Of a DNA stretch of 61,612 nucleotides, positions 4,085-36,806 are shown in pieces. The notes below the pieces were generated by a model. It saw nothing but the letters and a program-made list of their open reading frames with translations. It was not told where the DNA came from and did no database searches. Every line of letters begins with the position of its first letter. The first letter of the stretch is position 1. Origin of the DNA: Candidatus Limnocylindrales bacterium. Its GTDB lineage: Bacteria; Chloroflexota; Limnocylindria; Limnocylindrales; CSP1-4. The position numbers and the translations under genes were made by a program. Location of the stretch: positions 1 to 61,612 of the forward strand of contig JBBJNS010000001.1 in the NCBI GenBank assembly GCA_037720745.1, in the 5' to 3' direction.

Positions 4085-4105
4085 TGGGGGGTCCTGTGCG
4101 AAGCG

Positions 4106-5470: not shown

Positions 5471-5605
5471 GGCGGCTCTGGCGGTGGAGTGGCGTATCGG
5501 GCGGCGTTCCCGTCAAATGTCCGCCACGTGGACGCTGATCGATATCTTGGCGCTCCACGAGGTCGACTCGAGATCCGAATAAGCCGCTTACGGCCACCAT
5601 CTTCA

Positions 5606-5632
5606 TGACATCACAATTGACTTCTGATGTCA
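5606..5632. promoter_or_regulatory. Inverted repeat TGACATCA-N11-TGATGTCA spanning the start codon of the RHH gene (candidate autoregulatory operator) in a locally AT-richer stretch
   Basis: Read directly: 5606-5613 tgacatca and 5625-5632 tgatgtca are exact reverse complements. TTGACT at 5617-5622 lies between them, and the ATG at 5627 lies inside the right arm. Confidence 0.45.
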
Positions 5633-6648: not shown

Positions 6649-6656
6649 AGCCGATC

Positions 6657-6678
6657 TCAGGCCGACCTCAGGCCGACC
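6657..6678. repeat. Perfect 2 x 11-bp tandem duplication (tcaggccgacc) that includes the stop codon of the MBL-rhodanese gene
   Basis: Read directly: 6657-6667 is identical to 6668-6678. The second copy begins with the minus-strand TGA at 6668-6670. Confidence 0.85.
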
Positions 6679-10018: not shown

Positions 10019-10026
10019 CCTGGCGC

Positions 10027-10032
10027 AGTGTA
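10027..10032 (-). promoter_or_regulatory. -10-like TACACT, 8 nt upstream of ATG 10018
   Basis: Forward agtgta at 10027-10032, inside the 43-nt gap after the stop at 10062. Confidence 0.35.
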
Positions 10033-10061
10033 TCGAGGTCCCGAGGTCAGCCACGGCTGGA

Positions 10062-11354: not shown

Positions 11355-12519
11355 CGGCGTGAGTGTCCGTGCAGCGCGCTACCGAGAACCGCTCTACGGC
11401 GCGCTCCCGACCAGCAAGGCCCATCTCGGCGCGTCGCTCCGGGTCGCGCAGGATCCTCGCCGCCGCATCAGCGAACGCTTCATCATCGAGGGGCGATACC
11501 ACGTAGCCCGTGACGCCATCTTCCACCACCTCGGCCACGCCCCCGACGTCCGTGGCGACCACGGGAAGGCCGCACGACATCGCCTCCAAGATCACGGTCG
11601 GGATGCCTTCCGAGCGAGGGACCGAGGCAAGCGCCAAGAGGTCGAAGCCCTGCAGCTGGCGCTCGATGTCGGAGCGGGCTCCCAGGAAGCGCACTGCCAC
11701 CCCTTCCTCGAGGCCAAGCTCGGTCATTCGGCGTCGTAGCTCCCCGGAGTAGGCACGGTGCGTGGCGTACTCGGCGCCCACCACGACGAGGCAAGCCTCG
11801 GGGATCTCGCGGCGCAGCCGATCGAACGCCTCGATGAGCATCGCGATGCCCTTCTGCGGATTGATGTTGGCCACGGAGCCGATGACCGGCACGCCGTCCG
11901 CGATGCCCCATTGGCGGCGGACCGCGGCGCGCAGTTCCGGCTGCGGGCGAAAGGTATCCGTGTCCACGGGGGGCACGAAAGGCACGACGCGAGAGGCTAC
12001 CCGCCGCCAGCCAGGGAAGGCGGAGAGGACCTTTCGACCCGTAGGCATGACGACCGTGGCCAGCGCCCTCACCCAGAGCATGGACGCCCAAGCCACGGGC
12101 CGCGGCGCGCGCGTGTCAAGGAGCTGCCAGACCACGGGCACGCCCTCCGCTCGGGCGGCCAGCGCGGCGTGGGGATTGACCAGACCACCGATCTGGACGA
12201 GGTCGATGCCGAGTTCGCGGATGCGGTGGCGGATGGCCAGCACCTCGGGCAGGAAGCCGAGCGCGAATCGTGCCTGCACGACGGGATCGGGTCGAGCGCG
12301 GAGGCTGTGGAGCGGCATCTGCTCGACGGCGATGCCTGACCTCCTCAGGCGCTCAGGTGCGTCTCCGGGCATGTCCGGCAGAAGCACGATCGTCTCGTAT
12401 CCGCGCTCGCCGAGGGGTCCGGCCAAGCGCAACGCCTGGTTGTGTGGCCCCCCGAAGACCGCGTGATGGATCACGAAGAGGACCTTGCGGGGCGGGCCGT
12501 CCCTATACTCGCCGGCCAT
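11290..12519 (-). CDS. GT4-family (GT-B) glycosyltransferase
   Basis: Motif EGIPTVILEAMSCGLPVVATDVGGVAEVVEDGVTGYVV. The likely start is ATG 12519 (MAGEYRDGPPRKVLFVIHHAVFGG), preceded by GGAGAAGG. The track ORF extends to 12699. Confidence 0.85.
   Translation of the reverse strand: MAGEYRDGPPRKVLFVIHHAVFGGPHNQALRLAGPLGERGYETIVLLPDMPGDAPERLRRSGIAVEQMPLHSLRARPDPVVQARFALGFLPEVLAIRHRIRELGIDLVQIGGLVNPHAALAARAEGVPVVWQLLDTRAPRPVAWASMLWVRALATVVMPTGRKVLSAFPGWRRVASRVVPFVPPVDTDTFRPQPELRAAVRRQWGIADGVPVIGSVANINPQKGIAMLIEAFDRLRREIPEACLVVVGAEYATHRAYSGELRRRMTELGLEEGVAVRFLGARSDIERQLQGFDLLALASVPRSEGIPTVILEAMSCGLPVVATDVGGVAEVVEDGVTGYVVSPLDDEAFADAAARILRDPERRAEMGLAGRERAVERFSVARCTDTHAGAYALALASKTHPDEKRAWRG
12504..12509 (+). 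promoter_or_regulatory. -10-like TATACT, 8 nt upstream of ATG 12518
   Basis: Read directly. It lies inside the first codons of the divergent GT4 gene. Confidence 0.45.
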
Positions 12520-13540
12520 GACCGCCGCCTTCTCCCCATCTTCCGCCGGCACTGGACCCCGCCGTGGGCCGGAACCCGACGCGCGATCGCTGGCTGTCCC
12601 CGCCCCCAGCTTCTTCATCGTCGGTGCGCCGGGTTGCGGCACGACATTCATGCACGAGCACCTGCGAGTGCATCCGCGCATCTTCATGCCTGAGCTCAAA
12701 GAGCCCAGTTACTTCTGCACGGATCTGGACTCTGGCACGCCGGCTGACGGGCTCATCTTTACGCGGGACCTGGACGCTTACCTGGCACTCTTTCGACCGG
12801 CCAGGGACGGGCAGATCGCGGGCGAAGCCTCGCCTTTCTACCTGTACTCCACGGACGCGGCCGAACGCATCGCGGCCTTTCGCCCCGACGCCCGCATCAT
12901 CATCATGCTGCGGGACCCGGCGGACATGATCCGCTACCTCCACGCTCGCCGGTACTTCGTCGGTAGCGAGGACATCGAGCGCTTCGAGGACGCGTTGGCG
13001 GCAGAGCCGGCTCGAAAGCGCGGTGAGCGGCTTCCTCCGGACGCCTGGAACGTCAAAGGGCTCTATTACCGGGAGGTGGGCCGCTACGCCGGGCAGGTCG
13101 GACGTTACTTCGCCCTGTTCCCGTCCGAACGGATCAAGGTCATCATCTTCGAGGAGTTCAGGTCCGACCCGTCGGGAACGTACAGCGACGTTCTCCGCTT
13201 CCTGGGCGTCGAGCCCCATCAAGACCTTCCGTCGCAGCAGGTCAACCCCAGCCTGGGCGTCCGCAGCCCTCGACTCCATCGGCTCTTGCTCACGCCCATC
13301 CTGCGCAAGGGCTTCCGCCGCATCGCTTCGCTGCGATTACGCAAGGTCGCGCGATCTCTGATCGAGCGCGTCAATGCAACGCCGCAGCGACCACCCTTCG
13401 ACCCGGCCCTGCGCGTTCAGCTTCAGGCAGAGTTCCGGACCGACGTGGAACGCCTCGAAGGGCTGATCGGGCGGAACGTCGCATCGATCTGGTATGGATC
13501 CAGCAGTCACATCCAAAGACCCCTGCCACCGCCATCGTAG
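12518..13540 (+). CDS. PAPS-dependent sulfotransferase-family protein
   Basis: The 5'-PSB-like loop is FFIVGAPGCGTTFM and the 3'-PB-like motif is IIMLRDPADMIRYLHARRY. ATG 12518 is preferred over the track's TTG 12485. Confidence 0.8.
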   Translation: MTAAFSPSSAGTGPRRGPEPDARSLAVPAPSFFIVGAPGCGTTFMHEHLRVHPRIFMPELKEPSYFCTDLDSGTPADGLIFTRDLDAYLALFRPARDGQIAGEASPFYLYSTDAAERIAAFRPDARIIIMLRDPADMIRYLHARRYFVGSEDIERFEDALAAEPARKRGERLPPDAWNVKGLYYREVGRYAGQVGRYFALFPSERIKVIIFEEFRSDPSGTYSDVLRFLGVEPHQDLPSQQVNPSLGVRSPRLHRLLLTPILRKGFRRIASLRLRKVARSLIERVNATPQRPPFDPALRVQLQAEFRTDVERLEGLIGRNVASIWYGSSSHIQRPLPPPS

Positions 13541-14577
13541 AGGTTCCTCAGCCTCCGGAACTCCGTTTCACCCACGATGTCCAGCACCGTCCATCTATCC
13601 GGGCGCGTGCTGCGACCCTCACGGACCGCGCTCATGAACTCGTCCGTGGAGATGCCCAGGTCGCGAGGCAACACCGGCAGTCCCGTCACTCGGAAGAAGC
13701 GGACGATGTCGTCACACGGTTCATCTCGGAGCACGTAGGCCGCGATGGTCGCGAGGGCGACCTGTAGCCCGTGGTGCCGCGGACGATCGAGGATCGAGTC
13801 GAGGGCGTGACTGATGAGGTGCTCCGACCCGCTGGCCGGGCGCGAAGAGCCGGACATCTCCATGGCGATGCCGCTGAGGATCAATCCGCGGATGAGCCGT
13901 TCTTGAAAGCCACGCTCCGTCAAGTCGGCATCGTTCTGGATCACCGACCCAGCGGCCGCCTCCGCGGTCAGACACGCGAAATCGTCTATTGGCTCGCCGT
14001 GGACCGCATGGGCCATACGCCAATCCCGTACCGCCGAGAGATTGGAGACCAGGTCGCCCAATCCGGATCGCCACGTCTCCAGTGGAGCCGAACGGAGCTC
14101 GTCCATGTCGACCACGATGCCGATGGGGATGCGCGCGCCGAGCGATCGCGGGCGACCGTCGGCCGAATGGATGACCGCGACGGGAGAGCAGATGCCGTCA
14201 CTGGACGCCTGGGTCGGCACGCTGACGAAGTCCGCGGTCTTCTCGGCCGCGGCCATCTTGGCAACGTCCACCAAGCGGCCGCCCCCCACGCCCACCACCA
14301 CGCCGGGGCGGACCGCGTCGATCGCTTGCGTGACGGCTTGGACCGATGCATCGCTGTTGCCGGCCGCCACGAATTCCTCCACGTCGAGGCCGATCCGCCG
14401 CCCTTCACCCATGAACCGGGCGCCGTAGCCGGTCACCGATGCGGCGCCGGAGTGGACCACCAGGTAGCGCGTCGGCTGCCGCATCAGGTCTGCCAGCGAG
14501 CCCACGGCCGAGGGGACCCCCTGAACGATCCGCAGCAGGCGCGGGATACGGATGGAGCGGTGTGCTGGGCTCGTCAT
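13507..14577 (-). CDS. egsA: sn-glycerol-1-phosphate dehydrogenase (EgsA/AraM type)
   Basis: 356 aa. Signature motifs are GVGGGRLVDVAKMAA, VSVPTQASSDGICSP, GLGDLVSN and GSSRPASGSEHLISHALD. The start overlaps the stop of the upstream cytidylyltransferase (ATGA at 14574-14577). Confidence 0.8.
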   Translation of the reverse strand: MTSPAHRSIRIPRLLRIVQGVPSAVGSLADLMRQPTRYLVVHSGAASVTGYGARFMGEGRRIGLDVEEFVAAGNSDASVQAVTQAIDAVRPGVVVGVGGGRLVDVAKMAAAEKTADFVSVPTQASSDGICSPVAVIHSADGRPRSLGARIPIGIVVDMDELRSAPLETWRSGLGDLVSNLSAVRDWRMAHAVHGEPIDDFACLTAEAAAGSVIQNDADLTERGFQERLIRGLILSGIAMEMSGSSRPASGSEHLISHALDSILDRPRHHGLQVALATIAAYVLRDEPCDDIVRFFRVTGLPVLPRDLGISTDEFMSAVREGRSTRPDRWTVLDIVGETEFRRLRNLYDGGGRGLWM

Positions 14578-15350
14578 CTGCTCGACGATGTGTCGAGCGC
14601 ACGAGCCACATCGATCGCCCGCTCGTAGTCGGTGAGGTCATCGACCTCGGTCCATGCTCGTCCTGCGACCGGCACCAGGCCGATGGCCAGCTCGGACGCC
14701 GCTCGGTCGAACGCGTCCTCGTAGTAGAGGTCCGTCTGACCGTCGGCCACCAGCTGGCGGGCATGCCGTATGACGGCAGCGGCGCCCGCCGCGTCGAACC
14801 GAGCGATGCCGATGTACTCGCCCGCTGACACCTCCGGGATGAGACTCTTGCTGACCCGGCGGACAAAGCCGTCCTCGTCCACCTGCACCTTCATCTCCTC
14901 GGCGCCGAGCGGCTCATCGCCGTCGACCGTAAGCCAGCAGCCCGGCCCAGCGCTGGCCACGTCCTGCAGGATCGAGGCATCGAACACGATGTCCGAGTTG
15001 AGCAGGCAGAAGCCGTCCCGGATCTCGTCCTCGACCGTCAGGAACGAGACGATGTTGTTGGCTGTCGCGTAGTTCGGGTTGTACACGCAACGTGCGTCCC
15101 TCGTCCAGGCACCTTGTGCCACCACGGCTTCGATCATCTCTGCGCGATGTCCCGTGACGATGACGACGCGCGGAAAGCCGGCCGCTTTGACCGCCCGCAT
15201 CGCCCGTGCCAGGAATGTGGAGCCCTCCACCTCTACCAGGGCCTTGGGACGGTCGTCCGTGAGCGGCGCGAGACGCCGCCCGACACCGGCGCCGAGGATG
15301 ACCGCGATGGGCAGACCGCTGTGATGCATCAGCCGGCGATGGTAGTGCAC
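14574..15350 (-). CDS. Phospho-alcohol nucleotidyl(cytidylyl)transferase, LicC/IPCT-like
   Basis: Motifs are IAVILGAGVGRRLAPLTDDRPKALVEV, NPNYATANNIVS and WTEVDDLTDY. The likely true start is ATG 15329 (MHHSGLPIAVILGAG). Confidence 0.75.
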   Translation of the reverse strand: MHYHRRLMHHSGLPIAVILGAGVGRRLAPLTDDRPKALVEVEGSTFLARAMRAVKAAGFPRVVIVTGHRAEMIEAVVAQGAWTRDARCVYNPNYATANNIVSFLTVEDEIRDGFCLLNSDIVFDASILQDVASAGPGCWLTVDGDEPLGAEEMKVQVDEDGFVRRVSKSLIPEVSAGEYIGIARFDAAGAAAVIRHARQLVADGQTDLYYEDAFDRAASELAIGLVPVAGRAWTEVDDLTDYERAIDVARALDTSSSR

Positions 15351-15395
15351 AGGTCAGCGATCGGTCGGGGCCAGCATCATCGAACGAACGCGCGC

Positions 15396-15401
15396 TAGAG
15401 T
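15396..15401 (+). promoter_or_regulatory. -10-like TAGAGT, 6 nt upstream of GTG 15408
   Basis: Read directly in the 57-nt divergent gap. Confidence 0.45.
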
Positions 15402-15407
15402 CAGCCG

Positions 15408-16172
15408 GTGAGTGTTCCCATCGGGACCCCAGGCAAGCTCGCCGACTTCTTGGCGCGGGCTCGGGAGTTCCGTCGGCGCTACCAGGGCCCAGAGGGATTG
15501 TTCTGGATCCGTCGCGTAAACCACCCCGTGGGAGCGATGCTCGCACTTCCTCTGCTACCCACGCGGGTGACGCCCAACGCCGTGACGGTGGCTGGCCTTC
15601 TGGTGCACCTGCTAGGTGCCCTGATCGTGGCACTCGCGTCACCGCCAGCGTCGCTGCTGGTGATGCTCGCTGTGCTCATCATCTGGCAGCTCGCCTTCTC
15701 CCTCGACTGCGCTGACGGGCAGCTGGCTCGAGCGCGGGGTCAAGCCAGCGCGTTCGGGGCATGGTTCGACCAGCTCGTTGACGTGGTCTCTCACGCCGCG
15801 GTGTACACGTCACTCAGCCTCTTCCTAGTCCGGGCCCTGGACCCTGACGCCGGGACGGCGGTGGTGCTCGCTGCCACGGCCATCACGCTCAGCCTGCTCC
15901 AGACCTTCAGCACCTGGCAACGCGCGGAGCTCATCAGCCGCGAGCGGCCCGTCGGCGAACGACCTTCTCCGCAGCTCCTCCTGCTCTACGCCAGCCGGCA
16001 TCTTCTGGACTACGGATGGTTTCTCTTCGCGGCATCGGTGCTGTTGCTGTGGCCAGCCGGGCTCCTCGCCTTCCTCGTCTTCAGCGGGCTACTGCAGGGG
16101 CTTTACGTCGCAGCGCAGGTCCTTCTCTCGTGGCGTGCCGGTGATGCGAACGGCTCCCGCCCCGGCGAGTAG
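15408..16172 (+). CDS. CDP-alcohol phosphatidyltransferase-family enzyme
   Basis: 254 aa, polytopic. It has an exact D(x2)DG(x2)AR(x8)G(x3)D(x3)D motif: DCADGQLARARGQASAFGAWFDQLVD. Confidence 0.85.
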   Translation: MSVPIGTPGKLADFLARAREFRRRYQGPEGLFWIRRVNHPVGAMLALPLLPTRVTPNAVTVAGLLVHLLGALIVALASPPASLLVMLAVLIIWQLAFSLDCADGQLARARGQASAFGAWFDQLVDVVSHAAVYTSLSLFLVRALDPDAGTAVVLAATAITLSLLQTFSTWQRAELISRERPVGERPSPQLLLLYASRHLLDYGWFLFAASVLLLWPAGLLAFLVFSGLLQGLYVAAQVLLSWRAGDANGSRPGE

Positions 16173-17634
16173 CCGCTGGGGCGGCTCGACAGTCGGCTTC
16201 CTGACACGGGTCGTGACCTGGGCCGGCATCGGGCTGTTCGTCCTGATCGCCCTGGAGGCCACAGCCATGGTCGGGGTGATCGTGGCGCGATCGGTAGGCG
16301 ACCTGCAGCACCCCGCCGTTGCGCCTGCCCTCCTGACCAGCCTGCTTGCTGTGGCTGCGACCGCAGCTCTGATCGCCGGCGTTCACCGATGGACGGCGCG
16401 CGACGCGCGACGGCAGTGGCTGATCGTGATGCTCGGACTGTCGCTCGTAGCGCTGATACGCATCGCCATCGCTCTCGTGATCGATGCGCCGGTCGACCGG
16501 GACATGGTGGCCTACGACTCGCTGGCCGCTCAGGTGCTGAGCGACGGCCGGCTGTTCAGCGACCGGCCGATGGGCTTTCCCTATCTCCTGGCTGGGTCGT
16601 ACGCGATCTTCGGGCGCGGAGCCCTGGCGGGCGAGGCTTTGAACACCCTGGCCGCGCTGGTCGGCGGCCTCGCTCTGTGGCTTCTCGTCCGGTCTGCTCA
16701 TCGCGAGCGAGCCGCGAACGTGGCGCTGTTCCTCTACGCGATCTGGCCAGCGGGGGCACTGATGACGAGCGTCCGTCTGACCGAGACCACCTACACGGTG
16801 AGCCTGCTGTTGGCGGTCCTGGCCGTCATGCAGGGAGCGCGCCCACAGCGCATGAGGGATCACGCGCTCGCGGGAGGGCTGCTGGGGGTCAGCCAATACT
16901 TCCGACCGACCAGCCTCTTCCTGCTGCCGGCCTTTCTGCTCGCAGCCACCTCGCCCGGAGCCGTCGGTCGCCGGCGGGTGCTCCTGGGCGCGGTGACTGT
17001 CGCCTTGGCCTTCCTGGCGGTTCTGCTGCCGGTCGTGGAGTACAACCGGGAGGCACACGGCGAGCTGTCGGTGTCGACCTCAGCGTATGGCGGCTGGAGT
17101 CTGTGGGTGGGCGCCAATCAGGAGCACGGCGGACGCTGGAATCCTGGCGACTGGGAGGCGCTCTTCCAGCTCACCGACGGCACGGTGTGGGATGACAGCA
17201 AGGCAGCCGGCCCGCTGGGCGTTCAGCGCATCAGAGAGGATCCCGTCGGCTTTGCGCTCCTCGGCATCGACAAGTTCCACACCATGTGGGGTTCGGAGGC
17301 GTACGGCGTGGACTTCGCCATCGCATCGCGTGCGGCGGCGCTTCCCGAGCACACCTTCCTGACCCTGACCAGCCAGATCTTCTATGCCGTCGTGACGGTC
17401 GCGGCAGCTCTTGCGCTGATCGCCCGACGCCAGTGGCTGGACCGGCTCGGGCTGCTGATCGTGACTGTCACGCTCACCGTGGCCCTAGTTCACGTCTTCG
17501 TGGAGGTGCGCGACCGCTATCACGCCTACCTTGTGCCCCTCTTCATCGCACTCGCCTCGGACTGGATCGCCCGGCAGCGAGCGGTCTCCGCGACCGAAGG
17601 CAACCAGATCTTGCCGTCTGGCCAGCCCACATAA
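16135..17634 (+). CDS. GT-C glycosyltransferase (GT39/ArnT/PMT_2-like polytopic membrane protein)
   Basis: 499 aa with many TM segments. The early loop reads DRDMVAYDSLAAQVLSDGRLFSDRPMGFPYLL and the C-terminal motif is RDRYHAYLVPLF. The 5' end overlaps the preceding gene by about 30-38 nt. Confidence 0.7.
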   Translation: MPVMRTAPAPASSRWGGSTVGFLTRVVTWAGIGLFVLIALEATAMVGVIVARSVGDLQHPAVAPALLTSLLAVAATAALIAGVHRWTARDARRQWLIVMLGLSLVALIRIAIALVIDAPVDRDMVAYDSLAAQVLSDGRLFSDRPMGFPYLLAGSYAIFGRGALAGEALNTLAALVGGLALWLLVRSAHRERAANVALFLYAIWPAGALMTSVRLTETTYTVSLLLAVLAVMQGARPQRMRDHALAGGLLGVSQYFRPTSLFLLPAFLLAATSPGAVGRRRVLLGAVTVALAFLAVLLPVVEYNREAHGELSVSTSAYGGWSLWVGANQEHGGRWNPGDWEALFQLTDGTVWDDSKAAGPLGVQRIREDPVGFALLGIDKFHTMWGSEAYGVDFAIASRAAALPEHTFLTLTSQIFYAVVTVAAALALIARRQWLDRLGLLIVTVTLTVALVHVFVEVRDRYHAYLVPLFIALASDWIARQRAVSATEGNQILPSGQPT

Positions 17635-17651: not shown

Positions 17652-18851
17652 CTACTGCGCTGGTTCCTGCTCACCGCGCAGCGCACGGCCGACGCTGGCG
17701 TGCAGCATGGCGTTGTCGTACTGGAGCTCCACGCGCCGCAGCGCACGCTCCGTCATCTCCGCCATCAACGTCGGCTCCCGCCAGAGTCGAAGGAGCGCGT
17801 CGGCGAACTGCGCGTCGGTCTCCGCTACGGCCACCTCCTCATCCGGCGTGAAGTCGAGCCCCGCAAGGCCCAGTGACGTGGTGACCACCGGGATGGCCGA
17901 AGCGGTCGCCTCCAGGATCTTGAGACGCGTGCCCGTCCCGGCCTCCAGTGGAGCGAGCAGTGGGCCAGCCTCCGCCAGGGCCGCCATCGCGTCGGACACA
18001 TCGCCAAGCAGCGTCGCGCCGGGGGTGCGCTCCACGAGGGCGCGGAGCGAGGGCGGCGGATCACGCCCGATGAGTACGAGCTTGGCCTCTGGGCGATGCG
18101 ACCGCACCAGCGGGAGGATCCGTGTCAGCAATCTGATGGCGGCAGTCAGATTCGGGTCGAAGCTATAGATACCGACGAATCCGAAGGTGGACGGTTCGGC
18201 TGCGATCGCTCGATAGGGAACGTAGTCGGCGACGCGGATGGTGTTCGGGATGACTCGCACCGTGGCGTCGTAGCGCTCGGCGTAGACCTTCGCCTCCCCC
18301 TGCTCGACGAACCAGACCTCATCGGCATAGCGCGGCACTTCCCGCTCCAGTCGCGCGAGCACGAGGAGGTCGAGTGCTGCGCGACCCCGGCGACCCAGAC
18401 CCGACCCGGTGTGCAGCCGCTGGCGCGCGCCCACTGAGCGGAGTTGCCAGAGATCCACGATAAGGCGGCCGACATGTGGCCTCACAGCGGGAAGGAAGCC
18501 GTCGTAGAGGGGATGCCCCAGGACTACCACGTCCGGCCGCGTCTCGCGCACGATGCCCGCCAGCCTTTCCATCGCGCCGAGTCGAGCCAGGTTCTCCTGG
18601 AATACCTGGCGGCCGCGCACGGTCGCCGCCGAGCGGATGGCGACCCGTCGCAGAGGGTGACGAGGCATCGGCGACGGGAAGACGCGCGCCACGTTCGGCG
18701 GAGTGGGCTCCTGCGGTTGGCTCCAGATGGGGAAGCACACGAGTTCGAGATCGGCCTGGGCGTCAAGGGCCCGATAGATGCCCAGGTCGCGCAGCTTGGC
18801 GCCGGAGACCGCCTCCCAAGGCAGGTCCGCTGTAGCGAATACGACCTTCAC
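17652..18851 (-). CDS. GT4-family glycosyltransferase
   Basis: Motif RLKILEATASAIPVVTTSLGLAGLDF. GTG 18851 (VKVVFATADL) is preceded by GGGAGG with a 5-nt spacing. The track ORF extends to 18911. Confidence 0.8.
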   Translation of the reverse strand: MKVVFATADLPWEAVSGAKLRDLGIYRALDAQADLELVCFPIWSQPQEPTPPNVARVFPSPMPRHPLRRVAIRSAATVRGRQVFQENLARLGAMERLAGIVRETRPDVVVLGHPLYDGFLPAVRPHVGRLIVDLWQLRSVGARQRLHTGSGLGRRGRAALDLLVLARLEREVPRYADEVWFVEQGEAKVYAERYDATVRVIPNTIRVADYVPYRAIAAEPSTFGFVGIYSFDPNLTAAIRLLTRILPLVRSHRPEAKLVLIGRDPPPSLRALVERTPGATLLGDVSDAMAALAEAGPLLAPLEAGTGTRLKILEATASAIPVVTTSLGLAGLDFTPDEEVAVAETDAQFADALLRLWREPTLMAEMTERALRRVELQYDNAMLHASVGRALRGEQEPAQ

Positions 18852-18876
18852 GAAACCTCCCGGAGGGTGGGCATGA

Positions 18877-18882
18877 AGCGTA
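18877..18882 (-). promoter_or_regulatory. -10-like TACGCT upstream of the GT4 gene (short leader containing an SD sequence)
   Basis: Forward agcgta at 18877-18882, about 25 nt upstream of GTG 18851. Confidence 0.3.
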
Positions 18883-18941
18883 TCCCGACTGACCCGCCGG
18901 CTGCTCTCCATCCAGCGGCTCGACGTGCCCGTCCGTGGCCC

Positions 18942-18947
18942 TATCCT
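18942..18947 (+). promoter_or_regulatory. -10-like TATCCT, 5 nt upstream of GTG 18953 and 8 nt upstream of ATG 18956
   Basis: Read directly. Confidence 0.4.
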
Positions 18948-18952
18948 CCGAG

Positions 18953-20464
18953 GTGATGCAGCCGGAGCAGCCAGGTGCCGCGGACGACGCGATCGATCCC
19001 TTGCAGGGTGTCGCGCGGCACGGCGCCTGGCACATGGCGGCGATCGTCGTGCCCGGCGTGTACACCGTCCTCCTCATCGCGTACCTGTTGCGCACCCTTG
19101 GCCCCGAGGCGTACGGCATCTGGGCGGCCGCGACGGCCCTGGTGGGCTACCTGACGCTGTTGGACGCCGGTCTTTCGACTACGACCGCGCGCGCCGCGGC
19201 ACGTGCGGCGGCGGGCGAAGAGGAGGCCATCGACCAGGTCCGGACAGCGTACGGAGCGTATGCGCTGCTGGCCTGTGTGGCGGTCCTCATCGGACTCCTG
19301 CTCGGGACGCTCATCCCTTTGATCCTTCGGCTGGAGGGAGACATCGCACGGGAAGCATGGTTGGTTGCCGCCTTCCTGGCGCTCGACCTGGGGATCGTCA
19401 TCGCCACTGCCGGCTGGATGGGCACGCTTCGGGGCACCCGCCGCTTCCGCGAGATGCTGCTGGTGAACTCGGCACAGGTCGCCGTGGCGGTGCTTCTTCT
19501 GCTCGTCCTCTTGCCGCCCCTCGGCCTGGTCGGTGCGGCCGCGGCACAGCCCGTTGGGCGTATCGTCGGGCGGTCGCTGGCAGCGCTCATCCTCGCCCGA
19601 CAGGTGAGCTGGTTCCGCGCCCGGCCACGGTGGCCCGGTTGGGCGAACCTCCGGACCGTCACCGCGTTTTCGCTGCCCATCCTGGCCATGCAGACCGCTA
19701 CGCAGCTCGGCGTGGGGACGGACGTCATCATCGTCGGAGCTGCCGCGGGTCCCACAGCCGCCGGGCTCTACGCAGCAGGTGCGCAGCTGTCGCGCTACGT
19801 CGGCTACTTCCTGTTCCCGGTGCTGGGGGTGCTGTTGCCCTCATTCTCGACGGCCTTCTTGCAGCGTCCCGAAGCCGCGCCTGAGCTGGTCCGCCGCGCG
19901 GTGCTTCTCACCGGCTTGATCGGCGGAACGGTGTATGGCGTGATGGCGTTCCAGGCCGAGCCCCTGCTCCGGCTATGGTCGGATCAGTCGTCCGCCCTGA
20001 GCGTCCAGGTCCTGATCCTCTACGCCCTGGCCTGGACGATCGTCACGCCCACGCACGTGATGATGCTGATGGTCATCGCCAGCGGACGGCATCGGATCAT
20101 CGGAGCGATCGTGCTCGCCGAGGCGCTCGTGAACCTGGTCTTGTCCATCGTCCTCGTCTCGATGATGGGTCCGGTCGGGGCGGCGATCTCGAGCTTCCTG
20201 GTCATCCTGGCGGACGACCTCTTCCTCCTTCCCGTGGTTTCCGCGCGAGCGCTCCGGACGCGAACGCGGCCCATCCTGCAGGGCTCACTGGGGGGCGCTC
20301 TGGGAGGGATCGCCATCGCGGCGGCCGTCACCCTGCTGCCAGTGAGTGGCGTGGAGGGCCTCCTCCTGCGTGGCCTGGTCGCCGCGGCGGTCCTGGCAGT
20401 GGCCATCGCCGTGGTCGTGCCGGGCAGTCGGGCGCTTATCGCGGGGCGCCGACGGAGCGGCTGA
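18953..20464 (+). CDS. MOP-superfamily oligosaccharide/polysaccharide flippase (Wzx-like), copy 1
   Basis: About 503 aa with 12-14 TM segments. The N-terminus is typical: YGIWAAATALVGYLTLLDAGLSTTTAR. The track start is GTG 18935. Confidence 0.8.
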   Translation: MMQPEQPGAADDAIDPLQGVARHGAWHMAAIVVPGVYTVLLIAYLLRTLGPEAYGIWAAATALVGYLTLLDAGLSTTTARAAARAAAGEEEAIDQVRTAYGAYALLACVAVLIGLLLGTLIPLILRLEGDIAREAWLVAAFLALDLGIVIATAGWMGTLRGTRRFREMLLVNSAQVAVAVLLLLVLLPPLGLVGAAAAQPVGRIVGRSLAALILARQVSWFRARPRWPGWANLRTVTAFSLPILAMQTATQLGVGTDVIIVGAAAGPTAAGLYAAGAQLSRYVGYFLFPVLGVLLPSFSTAFLQRPEAAPELVRRAVLLTGLIGGTVYGVMAFQAEPLLRLWSDQSSALSVQVLILYALAWTIVTPTHVMMLMVIASGRHRIIGAIVLAEALVNLVLSIVLVSMMGPVGAAISSFLVILADDLFLLPVVSARALRTRTRPILQGSLGGALGGIAIAAAVTLLPVSGVEGLLLRGLVAAAVLAVAIAVVVPGSRALIAGRRRSG

Positions 20465-21998
20465 AGGAGTCGACCGCGGGGCTTCGCCCGACAAGTCCGG
20501 CTGCCAGCCCCAGCATAGTTCCGAAGATCACGGCTTCGGCCAGTACAAGTGGATTCGTGCCGGCGAGCTGCACCAGCGCCCAGACCGGGATCCAGGCGGC
20601 CAGCCACAGGAGCGCCGCCCCTTGCCAGACGCTCCGGACGCCGCGGAGTGCGCCGAGGAGCCGGACCCACGTGACGCCTAGCAGCGCTGCCAGGAGGAGC
20701 ACCGCGGGAAGTCCGCCTACGAGGCCTGCCGTCAGCCAGAGTGAGTTGGGATCGTTGATCCTGGCCGCGTCGGGGATGTAGTCGGGGCTATCGGGATCGT
20801 GCACGGCCACATCGAAACGGCTCATGCCCGTGCCCAGGACCAGCGAGCGCGGCGACTCGAGGATGGCTTCGAGCGCTACCGCCTGAAGGCGCACACGGGT
20901 CTGCCCGGCGCGACTGGCCCCGCCCTCCACGCTCGGATCGAAGGGCGTCTCGGATGTCATGGGGTCGGGCAGATCAGTGGCAGCCAGCCGCCTTGCCCCC
21001 AAGTCGTCGGCGAGGACCGTGGCACCCAGCGTCAGCACCAGGAATCCAGCCGTCAGGGCGCCGGGCACCAGCTCCTTGCGGAGTGACCGACTCCGGACGC
21101 GCAGCCTCCAGATCACATCGATGACGACCGTCAGCCCCACCGCCGCGACCAGCCCAAGCAAGCCTGCTCGAGAGTAGGTCCAGTACGTCAGGAGGCTGAC
21201 GAGCGCGATCCCCACGAAACCTGCGGCAACGAGGCGCCGGTCGCCGGCATGCCAGCCGCGCAGGGTAACGGCCGTCGCGAGCGGTGCCAGCAGGATGCCG
21301 AAGAAGGCCATGTAGTTGGTGTGGAAGAAGAGACCCGTGGCACGGATGTCCCCCTCCCCGCCCAAGCGGAAGTGCAGCGGCGGCGGTCCGACCTCTCCCA
21401 GCCGAGGATGCTGAAAGACATTGGCGGGCCGGAAGAACCGCCAGAAGTCGGCCAGCGGATCCGCGCTGCCTGGCTCGGGATATGTCACGCGCTCCAACAC
21501 CGCGCCCGCGAAGGCCAGGAGGAGGAGGACGCCCAGGAAACCGATGAGCCGGCGCGGGCCGCTGTCAAGGCTTGCGCGCAGTGCGGCGAAGGCCACGGCC
21601 GCCGCGCCCCCTGCGAAGAGCAGATACACGATGGCCGGCTTGAGGTCGGCACCGCCACCTCGTAACAGCGCGGCCAGCGGGAACCAGCTGAGGTAGGCGG
21701 CGAAGAGGAGCAGCCACGGGAGGTCGCGGCGCTCCAGCAGCCGCCAGGCACCTCCAGCCAGCAGGAGGAGTGCACCGAGCGGCACGATAAGCTCCATGGG
21801 CGTGATGTCTGCCCATGGCGTGCGCAGCAGCACGTTCTGAGGGAACCACCAGGCGGCCACGAGCTGCGCGAACGTCGCCAGGATCAGCCCCGCTGCGATC
21901 GGCGCCGCCACCCGCGGAGGCCCCCGCCACCCAAGCCCGCCGAACGGGCCAGAACGCTGCGGGCGATCGCGGGGTGCGTTGGGGGAACGGTCGTCCAC
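20436..21998 (-). CDS. Wzy/O-antigen-ligase-like polytopic membrane protein, divergent copy
   Basis: 520 aa with more than 10 TM segments. It contains GLFFHTNYMAFFGILLAP and a large loop with a degenerate Wzy_C-like stretch DPNSLWLTAGLVGGL. Its 3' end overlaps the flippase 3' end by 29 nt. Confidence 0.6.
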   Translation of the reverse strand: MDDRSPNAPRDRPQRSGPFGGLGWRGPPRVAAPIAAGLILATFAQLVAAWWFPQNVLLRTPWADITPMELIVPLGALLLLAGGAWRLLERRDLPWLLLFAAYLSWFPLAALLRGGGADLKPAIVYLLFAGGAAAVAFAALRASLDSGPRRLIGFLGVLLLLAFAGAVLERVTYPEPGSADPLADFWRFFRPANVFQHPRLGEVGPPPLHFRLGGEGDIRATGLFFHTNYMAFFGILLAPLATAVTLRGWHAGDRRLVAAGFVGIALVSLLTYWTYSRAGLLGLVAAVGLTVVIDVIWRLRVRSRSLRKELVPGALTAGFLVLTLGATVLADDLGARRLAATDLPDPMTSETPFDPSVEGGASRAGQTRVRLQAVALEAILESPRSLVLGTGMSRFDVAVHDPDSPDYIPDAARINDPNSLWLTAGLVGGLPAVLLLAALLGVTWVRLLGALRGVRSVWQGAALLWLAAWIPVWALVQLAGTNPLVLAEAVIFGTMLGLAAGLVGRSPAVDSFSRSVGAPR

Positions 21999-22001
21999 CG
22001 A

Positions 22002-22010
22002 TAGACTCTA
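22002..22010. promoter_or_regulatory. Overlapping divergent -10 boxes in the near-palindrome ATAGACTCTA
   Basis: TAGACT on the plus strand is at 22002-22007. It lies upstream of the SD sequence GAGGAG (22020-22025) and GTG 22033. TAGAGT on the minus strand is at 22010-22005, 6 nt upstream of GTG 21998. Confidence 0.45.
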
Positions 22011-22032
22011 CCCGCCGCTGAGGAGATCCGAT

Positions 22033-24130
<2,098 letters not shown>

Positions 24131-24131
<1 letters not shown>

Positions 24132-25042
24132 TGCGCGTCCTGGTCACCGGCGCCTCCGGCTTCGTGGGGCGCTGGCTGTCCCGGGCACTCATCGACAAGG
24201 GCCACGAGGTCCTGGACGGGGGGCCACGACTCGACGTCACCGACCAGGGGGCGATGAGGGAGGCTCTGGCGAGAGCGGAGCCTGACGCGGTGGCGCACCT
24301 GGCGGCTATCGCGTTCGGACCCGATGCCGGCGCGGACCCGGCCAATGCCTTCAGAGTTACCGTGGGTGGCACGGTGAACCTGCTCGAGGCGGCCCGTGCC
24401 CTGCGCCGGCCGCCGGCCGTCCTGGTCACCGGCTCATCTGACGTGTACGGCACGCCGGCGGCCGAGGACCTGCCGCTGACGGAGGACGCGCCGTTGCGGC
24501 CCGTCAAGCCTTATGCGCTGTCCAAGGCGGCGCAGGAGTCGATCGCGCTGGCCTACGCCGCTCGTCACGAGCTGCGCGTCGTGGTGACGCGCTCCTTCAA
24601 CCACGCTGGGCCGGGCCAGCGGCCGGTCTTCGTCATCCCGGCGCTCGCCGAGCGCGTGGCGGCCGTGGGCCGCGGCGAGACCGATGAGGTGCCCACCGGC
24701 AACCTCGACGTGCGGCGCGACGTGACCGACGTGCGTGATGTGGCTGACGCCTACGTGCGCCTTCTCGAGGCGCTCCACGAGGGCAGAGTGGGCAAGTCTG
24801 GGATCACCATCAACGTCTGCTCCGGCCGATCGGTGACCATCCGCTGGCTCCTGGAGGAGCTCGGGCGACTGGCCGGGGTCCAGCCCCGCATCCGCATCGA
24901 TCCTGCCCTCGTTCGCCCCGACGATGCGCCAGAGATCCGCGGCGACGCATCGGCCATCGAGGATCTCATGGGCTGGCGGGCCACGACCCCGCTGGAAACG
25001 ACCTTGGCCGACATCTGGGCGGCCACCAACAGGGGCCTGTGA
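24131..25042 (+). CDS. NAD-dependent epimerase/dehydratase, most like GDP-4-keto-6-deoxy-D-mannose reductase (Rmd)
   Basis: 303 aa. Motifs are MRVLVTGASGFVGRWL and YALSKAAQE (YxxxK). The ATG shares 1 nt with the gmd TGA. The track fuses this gene to an out-of-frame upstream stretch (23411..). The Rmd assignment over fucose synthase is an inference from the N-terminal pattern and the protein's size. Confidence 0.7.
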
Positions 25043-25157
25043 GCCGCCCCGCCGCCTGGGTTCGACGTTCTTCGGTTATCTTGACGACAAGTGGTGGCCG
25101 AGGGTGACGCCGATAGACCCGCCGGCCCTGGTCGCCTGGGGACGCGGTAGGGCACGG

Positions 25158-25184
25158 ACCCCGGGACCCGAACAGCGGGGTTTT
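25158..25184 (+). terminator. Weak hairpin plus T-tract (aCCCCG-N12-CGGGGtttt) between the rmd-like gene and sqdB
   Basis: Read directly: a stem of 5-6 bp followed by TTTT. It could be a terminator for the gmd operon or an attenuator in an sqdB leader. Confidence 0.3.
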
Positions 25185-25191
25185 CGAGCGA

Positions 25192-26379
25192 GTGACTGAA
25201 CGTATCCTGGTCCTGGGCGGAGACGGCTATCTGGGCTGGCCCACGGCGATGCACCTCTCAGGACGCGGCGCGCGCGTGGGCGTGGTGGACAACATGTCCA
25301 AGCGTGCCTGGGAACGCGAGCTAGGCGTGGAACCGCTCATCGCCATCGCATCGCTCACCGAGCGGATCGCTGCCTGGAAGGAAGTCTCCGGAGCCTCCAT
25401 CGAGCTGTTCGAGGGGGACCTGACCGAGGCTGACTTCGTGCACGCCACGCTGGAGTCCTTCCGTCCCGACACGATCATCCATTACGGCGAGCAACCGTCC
25501 GCGCCGTATTCCATGATCGATGTCCATCACGCCGCCTTCACGCAGTCCAACAACGTGGTAGGCAACCTCAACGTTATTTTTGCCATGCGCGACCTGGTGC
25601 CGGACAGCCACCTGGTGAAGCTGGGCACCATGGGCGAGTACGGCACGCCGGATATCGATATCGAGGAGGGCTACCTCAAGGTCGACCACAACGGTCGCAG
25701 CCACACGTTCCTCTACCCCAAGACACCCGGCTCGATGTACCACCTCTCCAAGGTCCACGATTCCCACAACATCCATTTCGCCTGTCGGGTCTGGGGTCTG
25801 CGCGCCACGGATCTCAACCAGGGCGTGGTCTACGGGATCGAGACCGAGCAGACCGCTCTCGACCCACGGCTGGCCACGAGCTTTCACTACGACGAGGTCT
25901 TCGGCACCGCTCTGAACCGCTTCTGCGTGCAGGCCGTGGCGGGCGAGCCCATCACGGTCTATGGCAAGGGCGGGCAGACACGTGGGTATCTCAACATCCG
26001 TGACACGCTGGCCTGCGTCGCGCTGGCCGTGGACAACCCCGCCGGCCGCGGCGAGATGCGCGTCTTCAATCAGTTCACGGAGACCTTCACGGTCCTGGAG
26101 CTGGCCCAGCGCGTGCGCGATGCGGCGGCGCAGCTGGGCATCGCGGCCGACGTCATCCATGCCGATAATCCGCGCTTCGAGGCGGAGGAGCACTACTACA
26201 ATCCCAAGCATTCGGGACTCGTCGAGCTAGGTCTCCAGCCACATCTGCTGTCGCAGGAGCTCATCGACACGATGCTGCAACGCATCGTCGAGCACCGCGC
26301 GCGCATCCGACCCGAGTCACTCGTCATGAATGTACGGTGGACCCCCAAGCTCCGATCCGGCGCGGCGGCCGGGCTGTGA
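25192..26379 (+). CDS. sqdB: UDP-sulfoquinovose synthase
   Basis: 395 aa, matching SQD1/SqdB nearly throughout. Matching stretches are ILVLGGDGYLGWPTAMHL, VDNMSKRAWERELGVEPLIAIASL, HYGEQPSAPYSMID, HLVKLGTMGEYGTPDIDIEEGY and YHLSKVHDSHNIHFACRVWGLRATDLNQGVVYG. Confidence 0.9.
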   Translation: MTERILVLGGDGYLGWPTAMHLSGRGARVGVVDNMSKRAWERELGVEPLIAIASLTERIAAWKEVSGASIELFEGDLTEADFVHATLESFRPDTIIHYGEQPSAPYSMIDVHHAAFTQSNNVVGNLNVIFAMRDLVPDSHLVKLGTMGEYGTPDIDIEEGYLKVDHNGRSHTFLYPKTPGSMYHLSKVHDSHNIHFACRVWGLRATDLNQGVVYGIETEQTALDPRLATSFHYDEVFGTALNRFCVQAVAGEPITVYGKGGQTRGYLNIRDTLACVALAVDNPAGRGEMRVFNQFTETFTVLELAQRVRDAAAQLGIAADVIHADNPRFEAEEHYYNPKHSGLVELGLQPHLLSQELIDTMLQRIVEHRARIRPESLVMNVRWTPKLRSGAAAGL

Positions 26380-26395
26380 ACCCGCGCCCTCAACC

Positions 26396-27805
26396 ATGAT
26401 CAGACGGCATACGGCTGCCCTGCGCGTGGCGCTCATGGTGGTCGACGTCGCCAGTGCGATGCTCATGTTCGTCCTGGTGGCCGGGCTGCGCGTGAGCGAC
26501 CGTGACTGGACCGCCGTGATGGGCCCCGCCACGGCGCTGACGGGCCTGGCGGCCCTGGTTTACGCGGGCGGCTGGGTCGTCACGCTGTGGCTGCGAGGCC
26601 TCTACCGACTGCGCACCCGCTGGTCCATCCGGCGGGAGGCGCTGGACATCGTCACCTCGGCCGTGATCCTGGCGGTGATCACCTTCGCCGTCCTGTTCCT
26701 GTTCCGGCTCAGCGATGTCAGCCGGCTCTTCCTGCTGGCCCTCTTCCCCGCTCAAGTGTTGCTCACGCTGGGCGTGCGCATCGTGCTGCGTCGCGGCTTC
26801 GAGTGGATCCGTCGTCGCGGCGGCAACGCACGCTTCTCACTGGTAGTGGGCACCGGTCCCGCCGCGCAGGAGTTCGCCGATCGCATGGAGAGCCACCCGG
26901 CGCTGGGACTCAAGGTCATCGGTCACCTTTCTGAGCCACACGACCCGCCGCTCGTCGTGAGCCGGCCGGTGCTCGGCTCTGTGGAGGACGTCATCGATAT
27001 CCTCCATGACAACGTGGTCGATGAGGTGGCCATCTGCCTGCCGGTCACGGAGTGGGCTCTGGTGGAGCCTGTGACGCGCGTCTGCGAGGCGGAGGGCCGC
27101 GTGGTGCGCATCCCCATGGACGTGGTGGGGCTGCCCATGGAGCGCGGCATCGTGGAGGAGATCGACGGTCAGCCGGTGGTCTCGTACGTGTACGGGCCGG
27201 ATCGGGCGGTCGGGCTGCTCTTCAAGCGCGGCATCGACGTGGCCATCTCCGCCATTGCACTGCTACTGCTGGCACCGGTCCTGTCCGTCGTGGGCGTGTT
27301 GGTGCGGCTCAGCGACGGCGGCCCGGCCATCTTCCGCCAGACACGTGTCGGCCTTCACGGTCGAACCTTCACGTTGCTCAAGTTCCGGAGCATGGTGGCC
27401 GGCGCGGAAGAGCAGCTGGATGACCTCCGACACCTCAACGAGATCGAGGGCGGCGCCTTCAAGCTCTCCGAGGACCCTCGTCAGACCCGGACCGGCCGCT
27501 GGCTGCGTCGCACCTCGATGGACGAGCTTCCTCAGCTCTGGAACGTCCTGCGCGGCGAGATGAGCCTGGTGGGGCCGCGTCCGCCGCTCCCCGACGAGGT
27601 CGCCGGCTACGACTTGTGGCATCGCCGCCGACTGTCCATGAAGCCGGGCGTGACGGGCCTCTGGCAGGTCGAGGGGAGACGCGAGCCCCTGTTCGACCGC
27701 TGGGTGGCCATGGACCTCGACTACATCGACCGCTGGTCCCTCTGGCTGGATCTCAAGATCCTGCTGCGGACGATCCCCTCGATGCTTCAGCAACAGGGCC
27801 GCTGA
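26396..27805 (+). CDS. Polyprenyl-phosphate glycosyl-1-phosphate transferase (WbaP/WcaJ-type priming enzyme)
   Basis: N-terminal TM segments plus a C-terminal sugar-transferase domain. The domain reads FKRGIDVAISAIALLLLAPVL, GPAIFRQTRVGLHGRTFTLLKFRSM and DELPQLWNVLRGEMSLVGPRP. ATG 26396 is preferred, since the track start at 26330 overlaps sqdB. Confidence 0.85.
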   Translation: MIRRHTAALRVALMVVDVASAMLMFVLVAGLRVSDRDWTAVMGPATALTGLAALVYAGGWVVTLWLRGLYRLRTRWSIRREALDIVTSAVILAVITFAVLFLFRLSDVSRLFLLALFPAQVLLTLGVRIVLRRGFEWIRRRGGNARFSLVVGTGPAAQEFADRMESHPALGLKVIGHLSEPHDPPLVVSRPVLGSVEDVIDILHDNVVDEVAICLPVTEWALVEPVTRVCEAEGRVVRIPMDVVGLPMERGIVEEIDGQPVVSYVYGPDRAVGLLFKRGIDVAISAIALLLLAPVLSVVGVLVRLSDGGPAIFRQTRVGLHGRTFTLLKFRSMVAGAEEQLDDLRHLNEIEGGAFKLSEDPRQTRTGRWLRRTSMDELPQLWNVLRGEMSLVGPRPPLPDEVAGYDLWHRRRLSMKPGVTGLWQVEGRREPLFDRWVAMDLDYIDRWSLWLDLKILLRTIPSMLQQQGR

Positions 27806-29264: not shown

Positions 29265-29272
29265 GCCCGGGC

Positions 29273-29278
29273 AGGATA
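29273..29278 (-). promoter_or_regulatory. -10-like TATCCT, 8 nt upstream of ATG 29264
   Basis: Forward aggata at 29273-29278. Confidence 0.4.
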
Positions 29279-29296
29279 GCGGCATCGACCGACTGC

Positions 29297-29302
29297 TAGA
29301 CT
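29297..29302 (+). promoter_or_regulatory. -10-like TAGACT upstream of the epimerase gene (about 30-nt leader containing the SD sequence GGGAGGGA)
   Basis: Read directly. ATG 29334 is preceded by gggaggg. Confidence 0.4.
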
Positions 29303-29333
29303 CGGCCGCGCTCCACCGGAGCTCACGGGAGGG

Positions 29334-32903: not shown

Positions 32904-33081
32904 TGAACGATCCCTGTACGCGGCCTCTCGACCGCTTGGAACCCTATCGTCTACCGATGGGGGCGGTCATATGTGAACGATCGCGTCGCAGAGTCATGTG
33001 CGATGCCCACCAGTCGGGGTCGAACGAGCGCGGAGGAACGGCGGGACGAAGGGTCCCGAGCCCTGCTGATGCACGACGGGC

Positions 33082-36712: not shown

Positions 36713-36806
36713 CCGCAGCCTAATACCTCTGGCAAGGGGGTTCCAGCAGCCACTTCAGCGGGACCCCTCAGGACCTTATCCGGACGATCGTCCCGCCATC
36801 ACCTGC

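Follow-up and report, generated by a model that had tools for sequence, protein, structure and literature searches.

The 61,612-nucleotide (nt) stretch of a Candidatus Limnocylindrales genome analysed here (contig JBBJNS010000001.1; the whole stretch is referred to as the window) carries, inside a surface-glycopolymer gene cluster, a gene for a LicC-type cytidylyltransferase that is translationally coupled to one for a dehydrogenase from the family of sn-glycerol-1-phosphate dehydrogenases (G1PDH), with a cytidine diphosphate (CDP)-alcohol phosphotransferase gene lying divergently beside them (Table 1). We suggest that the coupled pair is probably a dedicated supply cassette for CDP-glycerol of archaeal-type (sn-1) stereochemistry, used for a glycerophosphorylated surface glycan. 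The suggestion draws on the families to which the encoded proteins belong, on the coupling of the genes, and on the conservation of the pair across phyla.

The coupled pair and the divergent phosphotransferase

The dehydrogenase matches Fe-ADH_2 in Pfam (E 1.7e-26), and of the NCBIfam models the one for G1PDH (NF002022) aligns to residues 6-336 at 252.5 bits, compared with 77.8 for glycerol dehydrogenase (GldA) and 17 for 3-dehydroquinate synthase (DHQS). It carries the motifs PTQASSDG at amino acids 121-128 and GSSRPASGSEHLISHALD at amino acids 243-260, has all of the metal-ligand residues (D175, H253/H257 and H269/270), and on the substrate side has the same SSRPASGSEH block as the M. jannaschii G1PDH (4rgq). 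Its closest solved relative by sequence is 3ce9, a C. acetobutylicum 'glycerol dehydrogenase' from structural genomics, followed by the archaeal G1PDHs 5fb3 and 4rgq and then by AraM (9h4x), which at 91 bits is the most distant of the G1PDHs compared; true GldAs rank far lower. The AlphaFold (AF2) model, with a predicted local distance difference test (pLDDT) score of 90.6, gives the same picture in Foldseek, with TM-scores of 0.86 to 3ce9 and 0.78-0.85 to archaeal G1PDHs, and GldAs behind. On its sequence the protein is a member of the G1PDH family, by a strong family-level match and not a chance motif, and within that family it belongs to a divergent clade and is not closely orthologous to archaeal EgsA.

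In an alignment of the dehydrogenases from 84 loci with four PDB sequences, every cytidylyltransferase-linked dehydrogenase retains the metal ligands and the SSRP arginine, as do three biochemically proven G1PDHs (those of M. jannaschii and P. calidifontis, and AraM), while S, A or T takes the place of the Arg in a clostridial subclade to which 3ce9 belongs. We infer that this residue (Arg246) binds the phosphate of the substrate. The enzyme is predicted to reduce dihydroxyacetone phosphate (DHAP) to sn-glycerol-1-phosphate (G1P).

The start codon of the G1PDH gene overlaps the stop codon of the cytidylyltransferase gene upstream of it (ATGA, 14577-14574). The best full-length solved relatives of the cytidylyltransferase are LicC (1jyk, E 2e-15, residues 16-248) and PntC (6pd1, E 3e-13, residues 16-246), and the IPCT half of IPCT/DIPPS aligns to residues 16-245; sugar-1-phosphate nucleotidyltransferases align with only the first ~120 amino acids. 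The N-terminal GxGxR signature is present as GVGRR (amino acids 22-26). G1P is the predicted substrate, given that the gene is coupled to that of the G1PDH and that a TagD-type enzyme replaces this one in a related locus described below.

The phosphotransferase scores 41.8 bits against CDP-OH_P_transf (PF01066; cutoff 22), and within its signature D100, D103, G104, A107, R108, G117, D121 and D125 are invariant across 28 homologs. Hydropathy and the AF2 model (pLDDT 88.7) both indicate about six transmembrane (TM) helices. Its nearest solved relative by sequence is Af2299 (E 4e-10), and Foldseek likewise places Af2299 and IPCT-DIPPS at the top (TM-scores of 0.64-0.66), followed by phosphatidylinositol-phosphate (PIP) synthases (0.44-0.56) and by PgsA, PSS and CPT (<=0.4). 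In sequence and modelled fold it thus resembles the subclass that works with soluble donors, in which Af2299 binds CDP-glycerol and DIPPS uses CDP-inositol; Af2299 was crystallised with CDP-glycerol inside a small hydrophilic donor pocket (PMC4634129). The 57-nt spacer between the divergent genes is presumably a shared regulatory region, and a scan for promoters and terminators from 13.3 to 17.8 kb returned no sigma-70-like or terminator-like site.

Given a GTG start, the gene for a GT-C glycosyltransferase overlaps the 3' end of the phosphotransferase gene by 38 nt. The same overlapping arrangement is seen in the closest relatives alone, namely the loci L086 and L087, the PMT_2 match in the latter being weak. 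The window GT-C protein had zero matches in a PDB sequence search, and jackhmmer did not link it to the ~490-residue membrane proteins encoded after the phosphotransferase in L001 and L010, which are also blank in Pfam. A universal module of phosphotransferase and GT-C enzyme was considered and is unsupported, as the gene that follows the phosphotransferase varies among PMT_2, Wzy_C and unknown types. Transfer of glycerol by the GT-C enzyme from a polyprenyl-phosphate-glycerol donor was rejected, glycerol having no anomeric carbon.

All that the original prediction, made from the letters of the window, had observed of these genes stands, at the coordinates it gave: a G1PDH-signature gene joined through ATGA to a LicC/IPCT-type cytidylyltransferase gene, a CDP-alcohol phosphotransferase gene 57 nt away with an exact motif and overlapping a GT-C gene, a glycopolymer locus as their setting, and no prenyltransferase (none of the GGGPS/UbiA type was found among the scanned window ORFs, or open reading frames). 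The profile-HMM searches that it had proposed as a check returned the expected family for each of the three proteins, with G1PDH far ahead of GldA and DHQS for the dehydrogenase.

Gene contexts of the dehydrogenase across genomes

Relatives of the G1PDH-like protein were scanned in one genome per species; of at least 592 found, the best 80 were fetched with their neighbourhoods and combined with the contigs of metagenomic homologs. Neighbouring genes were labelled by jackhmmer and Pfam on ORFs called with a basic longest-ORF script that makes them too long in high-GC loci. By gene context the family splits into group A, with 32 loci, and group B, with 52. In every group A locus a full-length ortholog of the window cytidylyltransferase (31-69% identity) directly adjoins the G1PDH gene. 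In bacterial members the cytidylyltransferase gene usually lies upstream with a 4-nt stop/start overlap, shared by nine or more loci of the Chloroflexota, Solirubrobacterales, Verrucomicrobiales and other groups. Group A takes in all of the Chloroflexota, Solirubrobacterales, one metagenome-assembled genome (MAG) of the Acidimicrobiales, WOR-3, Verrucomicrobiales, Coprothermobacter platensis DSM 11748 and three Nitrososphaeria archaea, its carriers being mesophilic soil and freshwater lineages, and the contexts of the pair are glycan-assembly clusters.

The genes that accompany the pair within ~7 kb are more varied. CDP-OH_P_transf is present in half of the group A loci (16 of 32), a TagF-like Glyphos_transf gene in six and LicD in two; one of the TagF-like loci, L003, additionally encodes a CDP-ribitol synthase of the TarIJ-like type. 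What is conserved as a unit is the cytidylyltransferase-G1PDH pair and not a trio, with the phosphotransferase as one of several alternative third genes. The expectation that all three genes would stay adjacent across genomes is therefore borne out for the pair, in 32 loci, and not for the phosphotransferase, found in only 16 of these. The exact window layout, [GT-C <- CDP-OH <-][-> cytidylyltransferase -> G1PDH], recurs in L086 and L087; a convergent sulfotransferase gene was also called in L087, and the convergent gene downstream in L086, cut off by the contig end, drew no Pfam match.

A further arrangement is found in L063, a Saprospiraceae MAG (1208-6017), where the order is Wzx, sulfotransferase, LicD, a 141-residue TagD-family cytidylyltransferase (PF01467) and the G1PDH gene. 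By its family assignment, a classical glycerol-phosphate cytidylyltransferase here stands in the place of the LicC-type enzyme, as a non-orthologous replacement.

In the Nitrososphaeria (Nitrosomirales, Nitrosopumilales and Nitrosocaldus) the genes run in the order G1PDH, LicC-like cytidylyltransferase, CDP-alcohol phosphotransferase (L016:7992-10733, L020:5365-8017 and L036:3212-5418), and the set in L016 adjoins a Wzx-like flippase.

Group B comprises Clostridia, including the 3ce9 family, gut Alphaproteobacteria MAGs, Endomicrobia, Planctomycetes and Lactobacillaceae, and reaches 55 loci when L015, L021 and L063 are added. A cytidylyltransferase gene of the window type was never found beside the G1PDH-like gene in group B loci; instead a gene for a HAD phosphatase of ~215 amino acids precedes it, ~650 nt upstream, in 39 of the 55. 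A HAD gene adjoins G1PDH in none of 30 group A loci, a result that concerns HAD genes, as kinases were not searched for outside the window. The group B pathway perhaps leads from G1P to glycerol, or is Gtp-like in the sense discussed below. In a neighbour-joining tree group B is recovered in 186 of 200 bootstraps and the Chloroflexota subclade in 200 of 200.

A proposed route to CDP-sn-1-glycerol and its alternatives

In the route that we propose, the G1PDH-family enzyme would reduce DHAP to G1P, and the LicC-type cytidylyltransferase would join G1P and CTP to give CDP-glycerol. The six-TM phosphotransferase, with its active site facing the cytoplasm, would then move glycerophosphate from soluble CDP-glycerol to a hydroxyl group with release of CMP, the acceptor most likely being a sugar of the undecaprenyl-pyrophosphate-linked repeat unit built by the priming transferase and the GT4 and GT2 enzymes. 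Wzx would flip the decorated unit and a Wzy-type protein polymerise it; GT-C enzymes, and possibly the sulfotransferase, would modify the polymer further, and the three LytR-CpsA-Psr (LCP) enzymes would attach it to the wall.

The CDP-alcohol phosphotransferase, TagF-like and LicD families all use CDP-activated alcohol donors. As all of the partner families share this trait, and as two non-homologous cytidylyltransferases share the same dehydrogenase, the simplest reading of the pair is the sequence DHAP to G1P to CDP-glycerol. G1P is, to our knowledge, not otherwise provided by bacterial central metabolism, and a dedicated dehydrogenase is sensible only if its product is unavailable from that source, which argues for G1P rather than sn-glycerol-3-phosphate. 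Scanning the ORFs of the 61-kb window revealed no kinase, HAD phosphatase, TagD (PF01467), TagB/F (PF04464), inositol-phosphate synthase or GGGPS/UbiA prenyltransferase; with no kinase or HAD gene in the window cluster and no HAD gene in the 30 group A loci, reduction of DHAP to G1P remains the sole way to obtain a phosphorylated substrate. The original prediction had proposed just such a path, from G1P through CDP-glycerol to decoration of the wall polymer. The cross-phylum pair and its CDP-alcohol-using partners support it, and the sn-1 stereochemistry and the acceptor remain its conditional parts.

Several points weigh against this route. The 252.5 bits of the dehydrogenase fall below the NCBIfam equivalog cutoff of 413 for NF002022; group A as a whole is recovered in only 87 of 200 bootstraps, is not resolved from archaeal EgsA and shows no robust monophyly; and no transferase lies near the pair in 8 of 32 loci, the pair standing alone in Coprothermobacter and some Solirubrobacteraceae. 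Pneumococcal Gtp1, which probably belongs to this superfamily too, reportedly reduces dihydroxyacetone and not DHAP, the biochemistry of the Gtp enzymes being that said to have been described by Wang and colleagues in 2010. A Halobacterium protein annotated as G1PDH is actually a glycolaldehyde reductase, so that annotation alone can mislead (PMC9700705). Finally, six-TM CDP-alcohol phosphotransferases are reported to use soluble acceptors, lipid-acceptor members carrying 3-4 extra C-terminal TM helices (PMC4634129). By this pattern the acceptor of the window enzyme is probably a hydrophilic group; by the same pattern, a glycan-directed member would have no precedent, and another type of acceptor is conceivable. 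The assignment of the acceptor as a repeat-unit sugar hydroxyl is accordingly the least certain point, and the weakest link, of the model.

Among alternatives, a Kennedy-type reaction, in which the phosphotransferase uses CDP-glycerol to place glycerophosphate on diacylglycerol or a glycolipid, much as choline and ethanolamine phosphotransferases act with CDP-choline, appears unlikely. Its product would be phosphatidylglycerol or a lipid anchor, and chemical reasoning indicates that CDP-sn-1-glycerol and diacylglycerol would yield phosphatidylglycerol with the natural sn-1' head group, which could feed the LtaS-like protein of the cluster or prime a polymer. The best-known reactions of the family do make lipids, CPT1/CEPT1 are weak matches, and the LtaS/EptA-like protein, with its N-terminal TM helices and weak Sulfatase domain, is encoded in the same cluster. 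The extra C-terminal helices of lipid-acceptor members are nevertheless missing from the window protein, CPT and PgsA structures fit it far worse than Af2299 and DIPPS do, and relatives swap the phosphotransferase for glycan-directed TagF-like and LicD enzymes. The same swap, together with the glycan-assembly setting of all contexts and the overlap of the phosphotransferase and GT-C genes, argues against a compatible solute of the diglycerol-phosphate or glycerophospho-inositol type known from Archaeoglobus and Aquifex, in which CDP-glycerol and a soluble phospho-alcohol would give a phosphodiester. This option, which the original prediction had offered beside wall decoration, is disfavoured by the glycan-cluster context and we consider it very unlikely: Af2299 and DIPPS act on soluble substrates, as six-TM members typically do with their acceptors, but a finishing phosphatase gene and an inositol-phosphate synthase gene were not found in the window, and the carriers are the mesophilic lineages listed above.

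It is also improbable that the product is CDP-2-glycerol, formed as by Gtp1, Gtp2 and Gtp3 and used by a WchX-like enzyme, with dihydroxyacetone reduced to glycerol, glycerol converted to glycerol-2-phosphate via a phosphotransferase, and this activated by the LicC-like enzyme. The pneumococcal gtp1 ('glycerol-2-phosphate dehydrogenase'), gtp2 (nucleotidyl transferase), gtp3 (phosphotransferase) and wchX (glycerol phosphotransferase) genes do share this logic and lie in a Wzx/Wzy capsule locus (PMC3493582, PMC1391919). Yet an equivalent of the third, kinase or HAD-type gene was not found in the window cluster, the dehydrogenase keeps the phosphate-associated Arg that proven G1PDHs share, and L063 pairs the dehydrogenase gene with a TagD-type glycerol-phosphate cytidylyltransferase. 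Least probable of all is that public annotation is right, that the cytidylyltransferase activates phosphocholine or another phospho-alcohol and that the dehydrogenase serves something unrelated, such as an archaeal-type ether lipid. Orthologs are indeed named 'phosphocholine cytidylyltransferase family protein' (NCBI), 'choline kinase' and 'L-glutamine-phosphate cytidylyltransferase' (both JGI), and phylogenomic papers on the lipid divide treat bacterial G1PDH as a lipid gene, counting its orthologs as archaeal-like lipid potential (PMC6431249, PMC5059525). The frequent translational coupling of the cytidylyltransferase gene to the G1PDH gene, across phyla, speaks against this and makes these names probably wrong for the clade; moreover, LicA, LicB, GGGPS and PcrB genes were not found in the window or in annotated relatives.

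The route to CDP-sn-1-glycerol shares features with several characterised systems. With the TagD/TagF systems of wall teichoic acids, and the Gct/TagF-like capsule polymerases of group 2 capsules, it would have in common the CTP-dependent activation of glycerol phosphate and, as proposed for the window, a cytoplasmic phosphotransferase acting on a lipid-linked glycopolymer. It differs in using a dedicated G1PDH, and so presumably the other enantiomer, where those systems use GpsA or GlpK, and in having a LicC-type cytidylyltransferase, a transferase of the CDP-alcohol phosphotransferase family, and export by Wzx/Wzy instead of TagGH. Independence from TagD/TagF, as originally predicted, holds for this window; among relatives, TagF-like genes partner the cassette in six loci and a TagD-like gene stands with G1PDH in one. 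The closest characterised analogue in logic, likened by the described roles of the genes only, is the pneumococcal Gtp1-3/WchX system of serotype 15/23 capsules, in which genes for a dehydrogenase, nucleotidyltransferase and glycerol phosphotransferase lie inside a Wzx/Wzy locus; it differs in requiring the Gtp3 phosphotransferase and in its product, glycerol-2-phosphate. IPCT/DIPPS and Af2299 provide the best sequence and structure matches, and likewise combine a phospho-alcohol cytidylyltransferase with a six-TM phosphotransferase and a soluble CDP-alcohol donor. The window genes are, in contrast, unfused, separate and divergent, lie in a glycan cluster, and reach only 47 and 43 bits against the fused model (NF041135; cutoff 580), and their acceptor is probably not a small phospho-alcohol. 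B. subtilis AraM, which acts with PcrB, is a bacterial precedent for a G1PDH-family enzyme making G1P, but in the window G1P is proposed to be cytidylylated and not etherified.

It is believed that CDP-glycerol-derived polymers are sn-3 and phosphatidylglycerol-derived ones sn-1, a rule that a widespread G1PDH-cytidylyltransferase cassette would break. In the text-searchable literature we found no paper tying bacterial G1PDH to a cytidylyltransferase, to a CDP-alcohol, or to teichoic acids or glycopolymers, the nearest being that of Litschko et al. (2021), in which CDP-1-glycerol is "likely absent" in bacteria and known surface glycerol-1-phosphate (Gro1P) comes from other donors (PMC8262930). 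A large share of the bacterial G1PDH genes in the contexts found here lie in glycan clusters or beside HAD phosphatases, with no prenyltransferase nearby. More tentatively, at least five bacterial phyla and the Nitrososphaeria may make CDP-sn-1-glycerol with this cassette and feed it to three unrelated transferase families. The 'archaeal' glycerophosphate enantiomer would then occur in surface glycopolymers, including teichoic-acid-like ones, the window phosphotransferase would be the first glycan-directed member of its family, and many bacterial 'G1PDH orthologs' would have nothing to do with lipids. Such polymers would resist stereospecific enzymes such as GlpQ, and for glycoconjugate synthesis the pair would provide enantiopure CDP-1-glycerol by a natural enzymatic route. 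As a cultured carrier of the pair, Coprothermobacter platensis DSM 11748 makes experiments tractable.

The surface-glycopolymer cluster and its surroundings

The window has a GC content of ~0.69, and the nearest relatives of its proteins are in Chloroflexota / Candidatus Limnocylindrales MAGs. By Pfam and hydropathy, the Wzx/Wzy/LCP-type cluster spans 8.4-38 kb (~30 kb) and contains the four genes of the cassette region; further genes in its right-hand part encode several GT4s, a GT2, and GDP-mannose 4,6-dehydratase with a reductase. With two separate Wzy_C/O-antigen-ligase-like genes and three LCP genes, the cluster may encode more than one polymer or attachment route.

Table 1. Positions of features in the window, with group B loci given by locus name.
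Feature	Position	Strand	Basis and remarks
Membrane sulfatase/LtaS-like protein, 571 aa (amino acids)	8405-10120	-	Pfam (weak Sulfatase domain, E 3e-4) and hydropathy
Polytopic GT-C-like membrane protein	10062-11354	-	Pfam, hydropathy
GT4 glycosyltransferase	11290-12699	-	Pfam, hydropathy
Sulfotransferase	12485..13540	+	Sulfotransfer_3 / Sulfotransfer_1; convergent with 3' end of G1PDH gene, 34-nt overlap
G1PDH-family NAD(P)H dehydrogenase, 356 aa	13507..14577	-	Fe-ADH_2, NF002022; predicted DHAP -> G1P
ATGA stop/start overlap of cytidylyltransferase and G1PDH genes	14574..14577	-	Read from sequence
LicC/IPCT/PntC-type phospho-alcohol cytidylyltransferase, 258 aa	14574..15350	-	NTP_transf_3 / NTP_transferase (Pfam); predicted CTP + G1P -> CDP-glycerol
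Divergent intergenic spacer, 57 nt	15351..15407		Sequence
Six-TM CDP-alcohol phosphotransferase, 254 aa	15408..16172	+	CDP-OH_P_transf; predicted CDP-glycerol + acceptor-OH -> acceptor-P-glycerol + CMP
Signature D(x2)DG(x2)AR(x8)G(x3)D(x3)D, aa 100-125	15705..15782	+	Exact regular-expression match
GT-C glycosyltransferase, 499 aa, about 9 TM	16135..17634	+	PMT_2, E 6.7e-14
Rest of Wzx/Wzy-type cluster	17652..38027		Pfam
Wzx flippase	18935-20464		Pfam
Two Wzy_C / O-antigen-ligase-like genes, separate	20436-21998 and 27753-29573		Pfam
Bac_transf priming transferase	26330-27805		Pfam
Three tandem LCP ligases, end of cluster	34332-38027	-	Pfam
Group B loci with upstream HAD gene, examples	L018, L023, L030, L035, L056 (L056:7330-7980), L057, L070 and 32 others		

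The LtaS-like protein has 4-5 N-terminal TM helices and an architecture like that of LtaS, EptA or OpgB, and its gene coincides with a local GC dip (0.63 against ~0.69). A PDB sequence search returned zero matches for it. Within the cluster it might serve as a second phospho-group transferase, acting outside the cytoplasm. Sulfotransferase genes recur near the cassette in L003, L006, L007, L009, L063 and L087, which suggests that these glycopolymers are both sulfated and glycerophosphorylated.

The window and L089 have MgtE, Nramp and rhodanese/MBL genes in common (2819-8068 in the window, L089:1950-6068). In L089 these genes are followed by a different and shorter glycan cluster, still with a cytidylyltransferase-G1PDH pair, and from this comparison the glycan locus resembles a variable island whose chromosomal site is conserved. 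Past the cluster lies a block for bacterial type II fatty acid synthesis and acetyl-CoA carboxylase (FabG, FabH, FabF, FabZ and AccABCD; 38129-46960, minus strand), and the upstream flank encodes a GAF-GGDEF diguanylate cyclase (1300-2796, minus strand) and a Fic-domain protein (5986-6648, plus strand).

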